DNA of 64,000 nt from a virus (taxonomy: Duplodnaviria; Heunggongvirae; Uroviricota; Caudoviricetes), in IMG/VR virus record IMGVR_UViG_3300028887_000002, positions 32,001-96,000 of that record, one strand, 5' to 3'. Position 1 is the first letter of the stretch, and every line of letters starts with the position of its first letter. The notes under the pieces are model-generated. The model worked only from the letters and a program-made list of their open reading frames with translations. It was not told where the DNA came from and did not search any database. Shown in pieces: positions 4,618 to 55,862 of this stretch. Position numbers and translations under genes: made by a program.

Positions 4618-5487
4618 TTACTCTCCTATTAATATTCTCTGTTCAACATAGTCTCTATCCTGTGTGAGAATTGGCATATCATAATCAATAATCCACTCTT
4701 TACGAATTTCACCATTCTCTAAAGTTCTTGGAATCTGGATTACTGCAACTCCTCTCTTGAACTTCGTAGGAATGTCATTCCAGTTGATTCCTTTCTCAGT
4801 CATTAGCATATCTTGAATGTCATTGCAAGATTTCTTGAACAACTGCTTTGGTGAATAGTGATACCTTCCGAGCATCTCAATAGAGTTTCTTGTAGCATCT
4901 TGCTGCCTCCAAATCACACAGTTACAAACCTCCTCTTTAGGTATATTGAAGCATCTTGCATCGAACATTGCAGTGCCTTCTACTGACTTATAAGTTTCTA
5001 ACAACTTTTCAATCTTTTCAGTATCTTCTAAGTCCAGACCATACACTTCTTTGAATTGTGTCTTATGTTTTTCAAATGAAGGATTGTTAAACGCATAATC
5101 TCTTTGAAAAAATATATCTACAAATTCTTTGAAATATTTATTGAACAACATAGTAGCCATTGAAGCAGTAATACTACACATCTTCTGAACTTCATAGCCA
5201 AACCACGCTTCTGTATTCAACTTCTCATAATCCTGAAGTACCAATGTAATTTCATCAGATTGAGTATAGCCAAATACACAGCCTTGAATTCTCTTACAAA
5301 GCTCTTTAGTGGTCTCAGCCATTGTGTATTGTAATACATAATCATAAGGCTTGTTGAAATGCCTTGTGAAAGTGTGAAAAGCCTTGCCGTCGATTCTTAT
5401 GATTACTGGAGTTCTTCTCATAAGCGAAGTCTTTGAAATGCCTTCATAATAAGACTTCATTCTATCACCTAAACTATCTTTTGTCAT
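4618..5487 (-). CDS. thg1: tRNA(His) guanylyltransferase Thg1-like protein
   Basis: RIDGKAFHTFT, YTQSDEI, FDAR, WRQQDA.RNS motifs. Confidence 0.93.
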   Translation of the reverse strand: MTKDSLGDRMKSYYEGISKTSLMRRTPVIIRIDGKAFHTFTRHFNKPYDYVLQYTMAETTKELCKRIQGCVFGYTQSDEITLVLQDYEKLNTEAWFGYEVQKMCSITASMATMLFNKYFKEFVDIFFQRDYAFNNPSFEKHKTQFKEVYGLDLEDTEKIEKLLETYKSVEGTAMFDARCFNIPKEEVCNCVIWRQQDATRNSIEMLGRYHYSPKQLFKKSCNDIQDMLMTEKGINWNDIPTKFKRGVAVIQIPRTLENGEIRKEWIIDYDMPILTQDRDYVEQRILIGE

Positions 5488-5702: not shown

Positions 5703-5935
5703 ATCTCTATATATTTTTTTTAAATCTTATATTCTATTATTTTGTTTCTCTTAAATATACAATTCCCAAGAAAAATTTAGTTTTCTTCCATTGTCTGTTG
5801 GAAGATGTGGTGCAGATTTAATTGCATTTAATAATACGGGCAAGAAGTCTCCTTCCTTCAGGTGGGGGATGAATTGCCCTTGGTTGATAATATCGTTAGT
5901 TATCTCTGTCATATCGTTTCTTTGATTTGACGCTG

Positions 5936-5967
5936 CAAATATACAACGTCTTTTTGAAACCACCAAA
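5936..5967 (-). promoter_or_regulatory. outward-facing Bacteroidota promoter inside the IS
   Basis: TTTG-N20-TATATTTG. Confidence 0.7.
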
Positions 5968-6043
5968 CTTTTTTTGAAAAAAATAAATATTCTTGAAATT
6001 ATATATAAATATTGTTATATTTATATATAAAACGACTTTCATT

Positions 6044-7303
6044 ATGAAGGAACTACGAGGTTACAGGTACAGGATTTATCCGAACGCCGAGCAGTCAACC
6101 ATAATTGCACGGACAATAGGGTGCGCCCGCCTCGTATATAACCTTCTCCTTGCGGACTTCACCTCCCAACTGGGCGGCGAGGAAAAACCCAAACTCCATG
6201 AAGTGACGTACTTCAAGAAGGACAGGCCGTTCTTGTCAGAAGTGGATTCGCTTGCTTTGGCAAACGCCAAACAGAACATCCAGACCGCCCTGACCAACTG
6301 GAGCAAGTCCAGGAAAGGTCAACGCAAGGGCAAAAGGGTCGGGTTCCCGACTTTCCACAGCAAGGCGAAATCCCGCCTGTCCTACAAGACGAACAACCAG
6401 AACGGAACCGTGAGGATTGAAGGTAATTACCTTAAACTGCCGAAGGTAGGCTATGTCAAGATTGTCCTTGACAGACCACCCGCTGGCGACATACGCTCGT
6501 GTACCGTGGAGCAGACAAGGGATGGAAAGTTCTTCGTGTCCCTCTGCATGGAGGTTGAGATTGAAACGAAACAAAAGAACAAACGATATGACGACCTCAA
6601 GGTCGTGGGGGTGGACATGTCATTCCCGCACTTCTCGGTCGACTCGGAAGAAATATCTGGCGATACGAAAGCCAAGTACGTCAGGCAGTACCGTGAGAAC
6701 GAGAAAAAGTTGAAACGGCTTCAACGCTGGGTTTCAAGGAAGAACAAGGGTTCTGCGAACTACGCGAAGGCGAAGCGGAGGCTTGCCGAACTGCATGCCT
6801 ACATTGCCAACTGCCGAAGGGATTTCTGCCACAAGACGTCCCGATGGTACGCGGAGAACTGGGACGTTATTGTCCTTGAGGGCATAAACATGCAGACGAT
6901 GGCACGGCTGCACAACAACGGCAAGTCCGCCAACGACCTTGGGTTCGGGATGTTCAAGGGATTTCTTGAATACAAGTGCAGGGAGACTGATTCCATCGTG
7001 ATGTATGTGGACAGATGGTTCGCAAGTAGCAAGACCTGCCACTGTTGTGGGTATAAGAAGACCGACTTGGAATTGAGGGACAGGAAGTGGACTTGTCCGC
7101 AGTGCGGAACGCACCACGACCGCGACCTGAACGCAGCCTTGAACCTCAGGGATTATTTTTACAGGGTCGTCACGGAAGAAAACTACAATACCGCAGGGAC
7201 TGCGGGAATTTACGCCTCAGGAGAGGCGACCTCTACGTTAAGGGAAACCTTAAGGCAAGCCGCCTCATTGAACGAGGAAACCCCTTCCTTCAGGTGGGGG
7301 TAG
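6044..7303 (+). CDS. tnpB: RNA-guided endonuclease TnpB
   Basis: YRYRIYPN HTH; RuvC I (GVDM), II (VLEGIN), III (DRDLNAA); CHCC/CPQC zinc finger. Confidence 0.95.
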   Translation: MKELRGYRYRIYPNAEQSTIIARTIGCARLVYNLLLADFTSQLGGEEKPKLHEVTYFKKDRPFLSEVDSLALANAKQNIQTALTNWSKSRKGQRKGKRVGFPTFHSKAKSRLSYKTNNQNGTVRIEGNYLKLPKVGYVKIVLDRPPAGDIRSCTVEQTRDGKFFVSLCMEVEIETKQKNKRYDDLKVVGVDMSFPHFSVDSEEISGDTKAKYVRQYRENEKKLKRLQRWVSRKNKGSANYAKAKRRLAELHAYIANCRRDFCHKTSRWYAENWDVIVLEGINMQTMARLHNNGKSANDLGFGMFKGFLEYKCRETDSIVMYVDRWFASSKTCHCCGYKKTDLELRDRKWTCPQCGTHHDRDLNAALNLRDYFYRVVTEENYNTAGTAGIYASGEATSTLRETLRQAASLNEETPSFRWG

Positions 7304-53293: not shown

Positions 53294-53367
53294 GACCACG
53301 TGCTAGAATTGGTTAATAGGTCGGTCTGCAAAACCGATTTTTAGTGGTTCAAGTCCACTCGTGGCCT
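53294..53367 (+). tRNA. tRNA-Cys(GCA)
   Basis: Cloverleaf; loop CT-GCA-AA; U73. Confidence 0.88.
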
Positions 53368-53380
53368 CAAGTGAAACAAG

Positions 53381-53407
53381 AAAAGCCTGACGTTTGCCAG
53401 GCTTTTT
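53381..53407. terminator. intrinsic terminator
   Basis: AAAAGCCTG...CAGGCTTTT. Confidence 0.7.
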
Positions 53408-53521
53408 GCGTTGTGAAAACACAACAGGGTTATTAACTGTTGTTTTAGAAAAAAAGTCTCAGGGACTATCACAAAACCACGTTTAGCCGACACTTAATGG
53501 TGTGAGAGTTTGAGACATTTG

Positions 53522-53603
53522 CGGAGAGGACAGGACTCGAACCTGCAAGTCCAGAGGACGGTGGTTTTCAAGACCACTGCATTACCAATTATGCTACCTC
53601 TCC
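53522..53603 (-). tRNA. tRNA-Ser(TGA)
   Basis: Cloverleaf with long variable arm; G73. Confidence 0.92.
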
Positions 53604-53622
53604 AGTTAGCAAAGTAATGCTT

Positions 53623-53715
53623 TGGCGGAGAGAGGGAGGCTCGAACTCCCGCGCCAGATTTCTCTGGCCTATCGGTTTAGCAAACCGACCCCTTCACCAA
53701 CTTGGGTATCTCTCC
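53623..53715 (-). tRNA. tRNA-Ser(GCT)
   Basis: Cloverleaf with long variable arm; encoded CCA. Confidence 0.95.
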
Positions 53716-53730
53716 ATTAATAAATCGTTG

Positions 53731-53801
53731 TTATCCCTGGAGGAATCGAACCTCCACGACCAGAACCAAAATCTGGTGCACTACCATTATGCAAAGGGAC
53801 A
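53731..53801 (-). tRNA. tRNA-Gln(TTG)
   Basis: CCAGA-TTTTGGT-TCTGG anticodon arm; U1-A72. Confidence 0.9.
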
Positions 53802-53808
53802 TTTTAAG

Positions 53809-53883
53809 CACTCTGGATGGGACTCGAACCCATAAATCTCCACCGTGAAAGGGTGGTGTCCTAACCTATTAGACGACCAGAGC
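53809..53883 (-). tRNA. tRNA-Glu(TTC)
   Basis: CCACC-CTTTCAC-GGTGG anticodon arm. Confidence 0.92.
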
Positions 53884-54160
53884 AAAAAAGTGACAGATTT
53901 CTTCAAGTTTTTTAATTTTTTGTTCTAGCCAGTGTTTTAAAACTTGGTGCGTGGCCAGCACTTTACCAGTTCTGTCAAACATTCCATAAAACAGTTCACT
54001 GCCTCAACCTCTCTTTAAACATTTACAGAAGACTTATCGCTTTCTTGTTCTTGCTGGGCGCCAATCCAACAAGGAAAACTTGCTCCTATGTTCCGTGGAA
54101 TAGCCTCTACCACGAGTCAAAATTTAGATTAGAAACGTCTTAGTGACCACCGACGTTTTG

Positions 54161-54234
54161 CGGTGTGTATGGGACACGAACCCATGACCCTCGGCGTGAT
54201 AGACCGATATTCTAACCTACTGAACTAACACACC
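54161..54234 (-). tRNA. tRNA-Asp with unusual ATC anticodon
   Basis: TCGGT-CTATCAC-GCCGA anticodon arm; G73; Asp-like body. Confidence 0.85.
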
Positions 54235-54241
54235 ATAATAA

Positions 54242-54374
54242 AATCCTCATCAGGACTTGAACCTGAACTTCCTTCTTGCTTGCACACAGGATTACTTTTA
54301 CGGTTGCCTCACCAACCTCTCTGTACTGATGTTATCTCGGAGCGAGGGTTTACCAGTTCCCCTTCAGTTTGGAT
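54242..54374 (-). ncRNA. tRNA-like RNA with expanded central region
   Basis: D-like arm AGGG-GAACTGGTAAA-CCCT; T-arm TCAGG-TTCAAGT-CCTGA; weak acceptor stem. Confidence 0.45.
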
Positions 54375-54393
54375 TGTTGTGTGTTCGCCATTG

Positions 54394-54465
54394 TAGCCTG
54401 ACCAAGAATCGAACTTGAATCTGCGGTTTAGAAAACCGTCGTTCTATCCATTGAACTATCAAGCC
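54394..54465 (-). tRNA. tRNA-Arg(TCT)
   Basis: Loop TT-TCT-AA; AATGGATA D-loop. Confidence 0.88.
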
Positions 54466-54466
54466 A

Positions 54467-55050
54467 TATCGAGAGTTTCTTTTCACTCCCAAGCCACTAT
54501 CTTCTATATTTAGAAGGTCGCGAGTACGGAGACGACCATTGGTGTTTCACCGAGGGCAAGCCCGCAAACCACTCGCTTGACCGCAAGCATCTCCCGTTTT
54601 TTTACGGGGCTTCCGTCGCAGTGACTTGAACGCATAATTCCGTTTTCTACGGAAATTCATAGAAAACATTCTTTTCCTGCTTCGCCGAGCCACAACTTCT
54701 TAGGCCACTCGCGTGACGGTCGTCCATTGGAGGGTTCTCCACAGGCGTAAATTCGGGCGAACTCAGCCCTACTCACAATATTTTTAGCCCTTCGTCCCTG
54801 ATATTAAGGGTGGCGTTTGTTTTCGGTGGATTCTCTTTGTTCATCTCGGCAAGTCCATCCACCAGCAGATACCTGCAAGCCTTCCTTGTTTAGAGTCGCT
54901 ACGGTTAGAGGCTGTCATATCCGTCCACGACTTGATGGTGGCTGCCACTTAACGATGTAGTGCTTTCTGTCGGCTTTCACAACCACCATTACGTGTTATT
55001 ATCCGACCGCCAGCCTACGTCTACCTCACGGCAGTTGTCTGGTTTAAGTT
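54467..55050 (-). ncRNA. large structured ncRNA candidate
   Basis: About 580 nt, GC-enriched, many hairpins, no ORF in the track, between two tRNAs. Confidence 0.55.
54640..54788 (-). mobile_element. orphan TnpB omegaRNA scaffold / IS607-like mini-element
   Basis: Hairpin then GAATTTACGCCT.TGGAGA...GAAGCAGGAAA, matching the tnpB 3' end at 7190-7280; ends AACGG. Confidence 0.6.
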
Positions 55051-55052
55051 CG

Positions 55053-55134
55053 TAGCGGAGGCGGGAATCGAACCCGCGAGGCACAAGGGCACGAGATTAT
55101 GAGACTCGCCAGCTACCACTACTGACACTCCGCA
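55053..55134 (-). tRNA. tRNA-Met(CAT), initiator-like, with long variable region
   Basis: 1:72 mismatch; loop CT-CAT-AA; 14-nt variable region. Confidence 0.8.
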
Positions 55135-55140
55135 ATATCG

Positions 55141-55217
55141 CCGCACCGCCTCGACTCGAACGAAGACCTCATAACGCTTTTAACGTCATTGCACTACCAG
55201 TATTATGCTACAGTGCG
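55141..55217 (-). tRNA. atypical tRNA, anticodon AAA (Phe?)
   Basis: Good acceptor, D and T arms; ATGACG-TTAAAAG-CGTTAT anticodon arm. Confidence 0.65.
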
Positions 55218-55231
55218 TTTTTTTAATCAAA

Positions 55232-55327
55232 TGGTCGGTGTTGGATTCAAACCAACTCGATGAGTTCTTAGTATCATCTTAACCGCATTACTGGCGTACC
55301 GACTGTTCAACTATTCGGCAACCGACC
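55232..55327 (-). tRNA. atypical or degenerate tRNA-Tyr(GTA)
   Basis: Perfect acceptor stem; loop CA-GTA-AT; long variable arm; T-loop TTTGAAT. Confidence 0.55.
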
Positions 55328-55367
55328 ATTCTCCTAAGAAAGGAGTAGCATGAAAAGTAAAATTGTG

Positions 55368-55449
55368 TGGGAGGAGGAGGACTCGAACCTCCGAAGGTGT
55401 TACCCGCCTGATTTACAGTCAGGTGCAATTGCCACTATGCGACCCTCCC
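55368..55449 (-). tRNA. tRNA-Tyr(GTA)
   Basis: Canonical type II cloverleaf. Confidence 0.93.
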
Positions 55450-55460
55450 GTTAAAAAAAA

Positions 55461-55742
55461 CAGAACCCTTTGATTTAACCCGTGCATAGTAAATTGTTTG
55501 CTGTTATAGGGTTCCATGAAAAAACAGAAGTCTGGTGATGTTCCTTTTGTGTTTAACTTAAAAAATGCAGAAAGTTTTAAAAGTTTTGCTGTAAATGACT
55601 TCCATCATTGGGGAACCCGCTAAGAACCGTTGTAAAAATAAATGTAACGGTGAGAACATCAGCCCTCAATGTTTTAGAACAGAAGCCTAGAATTTTGGAT
55701 TAACAGTCCAGTCCTTAAAAAGGTTTTGCTGTAATGGCTTCC
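55461..55742 (-). repeat. array of three ACAGCAAA hairpin RNA units (55680-55742, 55525-55603, 55461-55515)
   Basis: GGAANNC-N3/4-ACAGCAAA-variable-GNNTTCTGTT; covarying closing stems GAAGCC/GGCTTC, GAAGTC/GACTTC, GAACCC/GGGTTC. Confidence 0.8.
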
Positions 55743-55815
55743 TTAAATATATTTTTTTTTTCAAATCCAATATGTCAAAGAACTTTGTCAACTTTTATTT
55801 TGTGGATTGACGACA

Positions 55816-55847
55816 CAAAGGTAAATATAATTATTGAGACTACCAAA
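55816..55847 (-). promoter_or_regulatory. Bacteroidota promoter driving the ncRNA/tRNA operon
   Basis: TTTG-N20-TACCTTTG. Confidence 0.72.
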
Positions 55848-55862
55848 AAAAATTATTTTTTT

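Follow-up and report, generated by a model that had tools for sequence, protein, structure and literature searches.

A TnpB omegaRNA scaffold without an adjacent tnpB in the tRNA operon of a rumen jumbo phage

What is the guide RNA of a transposon nuclease doing in a viral tRNA operon when no nuclease gene lies beside it? The locus that raises this question belongs to a rumen jumbo phage of ~339 kb (a virus record of 339,287 bp with direct terminal repeats), of which we analysed bases 32001–96000, a stretch of 64,000 nucleotides referred to here as the window. The window encodes a T4-like portal protein and carries a minus-strand array of tRNA genes, and tRNAs were its only Rfam matches at gathering threshold. 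Judging from the closest cellular relatives of its TnpB, the phage probably infects rumen Bacteroidales.

A preliminary description made from the letters alone had proposed an orphan omegaRNA scaffold in this tRNA operon. The locus lies between tRNA-Met (55052–55134) and tRNA-Arg (54393–54465), on the tRNA strand (−), and the minus-strand motifs quoted for it were present where they had been placed. The position was therefore right but the bounds (54620–54788) were not: window 54634–54817 (−) is a complete TnpB omegaRNA (reRNA) scaffold without an adjacent tnpB. What is left of tnpB amounts to 15 remnant codons with a stop and no ORF, and no ORF of at least 100 aa was found within 53300–55860. 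The parts of the locus are listed here, together with the related RNA used for comparison in the preliminary description; L014 (the empty allele of a relative), L059 (a contig of a related phage), TnpB-1 and TnpB-2 (two proteins of this phage) and the covariance model R1 are described below.

54818–55051, minus strand: upstream half of the conserved RNA-like stretch that hosts the insertion, 97.5% identical to L014
54812–54817, minus strand: left junction, an AACGCC microhomology, from a three-way comparison of window, L014 and TnpB-2
54773–54811, minus strand: remnant of the last tnpB codons (..TLNIRDEGLKIL, then TGA, where TnpB-2 and L059 have GGA), non-coding in the orphan and forming the 5′ flank of the omegaRNA
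54674–54772, minus strand: omegaRNA core, comprising the P0 hairpin, a GAAUUUAC linker and a RAGATH-18-like three-helix core (P1 CCUGU/GCAGG), from model R1, Rfam RF03064 and covariation
54634–54673, minus strand: 3′ flank, an 8-bp AU-rich hairpin followed by ACGGAAUUAU, its right end fixed by identical elements in different contexts
54614–54633, minus strand: native guide GCGTTCAAGTCACTGCGACG, the sequence abutting the right end at insertion
54466–54633, minus strand: downstream half of the conserved RNA-like stretch, 94.7% identical to L014, its first 20 nt being the guide
7188–7279, plus strand: omegaRNA core of TnpB-1, of a more distant type, inside gene 6044–7303

The identity of the scaffold was established with R1, a covariance model built from eight tnpB-attached homologues, with the orphan and TnpB-1 left out of training. 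On the 339-kb genome, R1 scored the orphan at 107.1 bits (E = 6e-25), the 3′ end of TnpB-2 at 105.8 bits and the 3′ end of TnpB-1 at 41 bits (E = 1e-7), and it found nothing else beyond one chance-level match (16 bits, E = 0.34). The orphan thus scores as high as tnpB-attached copies; over 76 sources it ranked third of 23 matches. Each of the other matches that were checked (the training loci, TnpB-1 and L059) lies at a tnpB 3′ end, which leaves the orphan as the only one of the checked set with no preceding tnpB; the rest have coordinates that fit such a position. The claim of a scaffold with no tnpB beside it stands.

The predicted structure recurs across the family. For the eight tnpB-attached homologues, RNAalifold predicted a P0 hairpin followed by a core of three helices, with covariation at 15 of the 22 pairs. 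When all 23 sequences were aligned, 96.1% of cells could pair, versus 62% in shuffles and 35–49% with slid partners, and both sides had changed in 21 of 22 pairs, although this alignment was fitted to R1 and so somewhat favours the structure. Among these pairs is the P1 covariation first noticed by eye (CCUG/CAGG versus CCUC/GAGG), which proved real. The 3′ hairpin has compensatory changes as well, reading GUUUUCUA/UAGAAAAC in the orphan and L059 and GUUUUUCA/UGAAAAAC in TnpB-2. By eye, the P0 loop could pair with the bases that end the scaffold immediately ahead of the guide (AGUUC/GAACU, CCGUA/UACGG, GGAAC/GUUC and GGACA/UGUC), in keeping with the pseudoknot known from TnpB RNAs; in the orphan, AGUUC of the P0 loop would likely form it with GAAUU. 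An automated score of this complementarity (3.36 versus 3.20) picked the wrong hairpins and is uninformative. The single-sequence fold was mildly better than shuffles (z = −1.96) and did not reproduce P1. Rfam RAGATH-18 (RF03064) matched at 54674–54745 (−) with 23.4 bits, where its gathering score is 44.9; E was 0.023 when 221 nt were searched and 0.28 for 2.7 kb. The match agrees with the family in aligned consensus and in P1/P2, and the TnpB-2 3′ end scored equally against this family. Weak RAGATH-18 matches were unlisted in a pooled E-value scan of 12 loci, for which the pool was too large.

The tnpB 3′ end with which the preliminary description had compared the orphan was found at window 7188–7279 (+); a 12-mer common to both, GAATTTACGCCT, occurs at only these two sites (0.24 expected). 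It belongs to TnpB-1 (419 aa, 6044–7303 (+)), a protein with Pfam domains HTH_OrfB_IS605, OrfB_IS605 and Cas12f1-like TNB that is 33% identical to TnpB-2. An IStron reading was rejected: TnpB-1 lies on the strand opposite to its flanking genes, and no group I intron matched at E ≤ 1 when the loci of TnpB-1 and TnpB-2 were scanned with Rfam in a pool so large that a weak match would go unlisted. The TnpB-1 element is bracketed by an 18-bp direct repeat, CCTTCCTTCAGGTGGGGG (window 5852–5869 and 7285–7302 (+)), both copies of which encode PHLKEG, and a reading frame that starts at a minus-strand ATG (5913) leaves the element and enters the small gene beside it; the left end of the TnpB-2 element has a similar outward-reading ATG. 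Adjoining the TnpB-1 element is a gene for a Thg1-like tRNA-His guanylyltransferase (window 4618–5487 (−), Pfam E = 9e-31). A cassette of ~100 nt (CAAAGATACAACGTCTTTT...) lies upstream of TnpB-1, TnpB-2 and TnpB-4 and at a fourth place, at 293 kb, where no TnpB match was found (genome 37888–37989, equal to window 5888–5989, 266075–266119, 293028–293132 and 338032–338151).

Is there, then, a nuclease in this phage that could use the orphan RNA? A search of the whole genome for a tnpB with this 3′ end, as the preliminary description had suggested, found a second copy of the orphan segment at genome 264766–264933 (−), consisting of the 3′ end and downstream flank of an intact tnpB, TnpB-2 (genome 264790–266017 (−), 409 aa, an intact ORF with TnpB domains), 178 kb from the orphan. 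The genome has tnpB matches at four full-length genes and one fragment inside a 540-aa ORF, and only two copies of this RNA type, the orphan and the TnpB-2 3′ end. These two are 91% identical over 184 nt (window 54817–54634) and differ at 1 of 99 nt in the core. The match begins inside the codons of the last RuvC motif (..LNAALNIRDEG..), which TGA breaks in the orphan. Against ISDra2 TnpB, the nearest solved relative (PDB 8bf8, 8exa and 8h1j), residues 3–372 of TnpB-2 align with E = 5e-65. The catalytic residues D189, E273 and D355 all fall in invariant columns of the family alignment, and a TldR-type, nuclease-dead partner was rejected on this ground.

The family of TnpB-2 is very large, exceeding 7,900 proteins at E ≤ 1e-30, and TnpB-2 homologues at 60–65% identity lie directly behind a 190-aa tnpA with a Resolvase (serine-recombinase) domain. 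No tnpA adjoins TnpB-2 in this phage; because its homologues elsewhere follow a serine-recombinase tnpA, we assign the TnpB-2 element and the orphan, by homology, to the IS607 type, as had been suspected from the orphan alone.

The ends of the element were read from its insertion contexts. Where identical elements sit in different contexts, conservation on the right stops after ...ACAGAACTAT or ...ACGGAACTAT, and on the left it starts at GTAT, with no conserved base before it. In eight independent insertion contexts the right end was ...AAYTAT and the left end GTAT, and the stop after AAYTAT recurs in three contexts of one element, several of another, L059, TnpB-2 and the orphan. The right end is therefore ...ACGGAAYTAT and not AACGG, as first read; the AGGG that had been taken for the left boundary is not a boundary; and the insertion flanks point to GTAT, instead of GG, as the shared core, target and putative TAM. 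As the identical elements and L059 fix the right end, the orphan terminates at 54634 and its guide, previously started 6 nt too early, is GCGTTCAAGTCACTGCGACG from 54633 downwards.

A related phage, represented by the Logan contig L059, has the 1.46-kb tnpB-only element of TnpB-2 as well (L059:2182–3639, 93.8% identical to genome 266223–264766), without a tnpA, with GTAT...AACTAT ends and at a genomic site other than that of TnpB-2. Its flanks match genome ~335–338 kb. Since the same element occupies different sites in two related phages, it has moved within the lineage, through some transposase or through recombination. The orphan is nearer to the L059 copy (94.6%) than to TnpB-2 of its own genome (91%).

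How the orphan lost its tnpB can be read by comparison with an empty allele. In L014, a 7.7-kb IMG/VR contig whose portal protein is 96% identical and which aligns collinearly with the window throughout the tRNA region, 14 nt stand in place of window 54637–54811 (175 nt). L014 reads ...AAACAAACGCC GAGCGCAGGTATG GTAT GCGTTCAAGTC..., and the window reads ...AAACAAACGCC ACCCTTAATATC...GAAAACGGAATTAT GCGTTCAAGTC...; the comparison places the right junction exactly between the right end of the element and the flank. GTAT directly precedes the flank in the empty site, and the same four bases start the left end of the element, as predicted for insertion by a serine recombinase at a short shared core. 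At the left junction, AACGCC is common to the flanking ncRNA (including the empty allele) and to the tnpB codons for L-N-A-A (CTC AAC GCC GCC in TnpB-2), and 13 nt of original flank are missing. An empty allele in relatives is what the preliminary description had suggested looking for, and this homologue of the surrounding RNA, by lacking the segment, speaks against the condition under which that description's reading would have fallen.

Given the exact right end, and a left junction at AACGCC within tnpB codons, a full element very probably inserted at GTAT and then lost ~1.29 kb between AACGCC repeats. The insertion would have been of an IS607-type tnpB-only element of ~1.46 kb from the TnpB-2 family (genome 264766–266223), and its target a small hairpin of the conserved RNA in the phage tRNA operon (GAGCGCA...TGCGTTC), of which the insert now replaces the 5′ half. 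The subsequent loss would have removed almost the whole of tnpB together with the left end and 13 nt of flank, leaving exactly the omegaRNA gene with an exact junction between right end and guide; an aborted copy during break repair, closed by the AACGCC microhomology, would give an equal outcome. A pattern of guide plus downstream flank retrieved only L014 from IMG/VR and JGI metagenomes, and a full-length element at the site was not recovered.

The host stretch itself is conserved: ~420 nt (L014:4718–5141) are 95–97.5% identical between L014 and the window, versus 88% for the portal-gene stretch. It matched no Rfam family, and blastn found no copy of it in more distant relatives. One might ask whether the orphan is an integral domain of the surrounding structured RNA, or now works for its host RNA and not for TnpB. 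It does sit in the highly conserved RNA-like stretch and replaces half of a hairpin there, yet the closest relative has 14 nt instead, so that the segment is not integral to the host RNA, and in sequence the orphan is a tnpB 3′ end that still has remnant codons. We regard a role of this kind as very unlikely.

To see how widely the allele occurs, contigs of four runs were compared with window 53900–55500; the runs containing the orphan stretch are bovine and goat gut metagenomes. A DNA contig from another bovine study (X2) covers 54464–55000, across the whole orphan, with 15 differences, and a goat-gut DNA contig (X4) covers 54470–54710, across the right junction. Alleles of this type share with L059 both the tail AACTAT and a CCATAG hairpin loop, so that the two changes in the window are private to it, and its private C-to-U change still permits a G-U pair in the proposed pseudoknot. 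R1 found no orphan copy in the portal-side loci of 43 relatives or in five large relative genomes, and these relatives mostly have no TnpB-2 homologues. Among 50,697 phage records, blastn gave no match for the whole spacer from tRNA-Met to tRNA-Arg; the orphan matched only Prevotella phage Lak-C1 and Thermus phage TMA, over short stretches of P0/P1, and an exact 28-mer of the core had no match in IMG/VR.

The same contigs show variation in the neighbouring tRNA genes. A block comprising tRNA-Arg(TCT) and ~160 nt ending in a tRNA-like T-arm/acceptor (GGTTCAAGTCCTGATGAGG; window 54233–54463 (−)) is an indel polymorphism, missing from L014 and from X2, in which the joint skips 231 nt, and replaced in X4 by a diverged tRNA of equal length. 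The tRNA-Asp at window 54160–54234 (−) has the unusual anticodon ATC (A34), which is GTC in the close relative L014.

Two RNA libraries bear on transcription. In one (X20), two contigs covering 54497–54661 and 54798–55042 enter the orphan by 28 and ~20 nt; these overlaps fall below our 31-nt bridging rule, and with DNA carry-over possible they give a weak hint that the orphan is transcribed. A contig from the other (X19, 54663–54817) was rejected as an orphan transcript, as it has an intact GGA codon and unlike sequence at both ends, by which it derives from a full tnpB copy.

With a complete scaffold, an intact cognate nuclease and an empty allele, we hypothesized that the orphan RNA is used in trans by TnpB-2, homing against empty alleles, and we rate this as an even chance. 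The RNA would be made within the tRNA-operon transcript and bound by TnpB-2, whose gene lies 178 kb away and retains the catalytic D/E/D. The complex would cut at GTAT followed by GCGTTCAAGTC..., that is, the uninterrupted allele of relatives such as L014, and in a mixed infection the cut would be repaired from the orphan-bearing genome, giving biased inheritance like that of phage homing endonucleases. The phage's own copy should be spared: allowing five mismatches over 20 nt, the guide GCGTTCAAGTCACTGCGACG matches the whole genome only at its own site, which is preceded by TTAT, not GTAT (CTAT in other orphan alleles). In L014, the sole empty allele known, positions 1–11 of the window guide match (an 11-nt seed) and positions 12, 14 and 16 do not; the X4 guide, as judged from its variants, would have only one difference from L014. 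The three mismatches stem from a 5-nt hairpin loop at window 54613–54623 (−) (GTC-ACTGC-GAC) that is inverted in L014 (GTC-GCAGT-GAC).

The chief alternative is an inert relic, formed by the same insertion and deletion and carried along as a passenger, neutrally, at a place where the operon tolerates it, its intactness due to youth and not to use; we give it a little less than an even chance. Deletion derivatives of insertion sequences are common, few substitutions of any kind have accumulated since the orphan's origin, and the allele is confined to a narrow lineage (0 of the 43 relatives' loci and 0 of the five large genomes). What a passenger would not lead one to expect is that the same genome encodes an intact cognate TnpB-2 with a near-identical scaffold, that the RNA lies on the transcribed strand of the tRNA operon, that the deletion spared the full scaffold, including 66 nt 5′ of the core, and that the allele persists in bovine and goat samples from separate studies. 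There are also no orphan-specific changes in the core: the three copies (orphan, TnpB-2 and L059) show 24 differences, five of them peculiar to the orphan, and none of the five falls in the 99-nt core (p ~0.02 for uniform spread). The divergence between orphan alleles (3 of 184) did not differ significantly from that of the flanks, and these comparisons make a weak case for selection on the core. If such selection acted, the locus might be an unlinked, guide-only drive or exclusion locus, in which one TnpB is served by extra guides in the tRNA operon that cut the uninterrupted allele of competing relatives; we consider this unlikely. Exceedingly unlikely, in our view, is a mobile non-autonomous (PATE- or MITE-like) element of ~150–180 bp moved by TnpA in trans; a non-autonomous element of ~150 bp was the first alternative that the preliminary description had offered. 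An exact right end is present, and omegaRNA-only, PATE-like elements have been described for IS605 in a preprint by Meers et al., but the left end (GTAT TATAA...) is absent, the left junction falls in tnpB codons at a microhomology, 13 nt of original flank are missing and the genome holds only one such copy.

Comparison with known systems places the orphan close to IS607 reRNAs. IS607-family TnpB nucleases have guide RNAs (reRNAs) built around a RAGATH-18 core, and 64% of RAGATH-18 RNAs adjoin an IS607 TnpB, with 36% not doing so (PMC11061315). Like the ISFba1 IS607 reRNA (Ren et al. 2024, PMC11061315), the orphan consists of a 5′ flank, a RAGATH-18-like core, a 3′ flank and a guide; the two have a common core consensus, CCUGUGGAG...GAAGCAGGAA, and the family is tied to a serine-recombinase tnpA. 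The orphan differs from that system in its sub-threshold Rfam score (23.4 bits against a gathering score of 44.9), a 3′ flank of 40 nt compared with 64, a putative TAM of GTAT in place of AGGAG or GAGGG, its location in a phage tRNA operon and the lack of a tnpB beside the RNA. TnpB-2 and ISDra2 TnpB agree in the overall plan of their omegaRNAs, including a pseudoknot, proposed for the RNAs studied here, that immediately precedes the guide. ISDra2 itself belongs to IS200/IS605; its TnpA is a tyrosine transposase and its TAM is TTGAT.

Omega RNA genes without a protein gene are found in PATE-like IS200/IS605 elements too, which are said to need TnpB in trans (10.1101/2023.03.14.532601); PATEs, however, keep both ends and are mobile, whereas the orphan has lost its left end, is of IS607 type by homology and appears to be deletion-derived. 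A homing role for TnpB in IS605 and IS607 elements has been shown (Meers 2023, 10.1101/2023.03.14.532601; Zedaveinyte et al. 2023, 10.1101/2023.11.20.567912). As there, the guide of the orphan is the sequence beside the right end, so that the empty allele is the target, and cutting followed by recombination would copy the occupied allele; unlike there, the nuclease is unlinked from the driven allele, and the arena would be a mixed phage infection.

Although tnpB-less omegaRNA genes were already known, what is new here is a left-truncated IS607 remnant in a phage tRNA operon, distinguished further by its readable history and by a cognate nuclease in the same genome. That history can be followed base by base, through the target, the right-end junction, the microhomology deletion and the empty allele. 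Were the RNA unused, the locus would be an ordinary insertion-sequence relic. Should the guide-only drive reading be true, a virus would here have taken a minimal, CRISPR-array-like step towards domesticating TnpB. Use in trans by TnpB-2 would mean that a viral guide can part from its nuclease gene and yet go on driving the allele in which it lies, which would bear on how guide arrays become separated from nuclease genes. Homing endonucleases occur in phage tRNA clusters, T4 SegB being one example, and the orphan would then be their RNA-guided counterpart.
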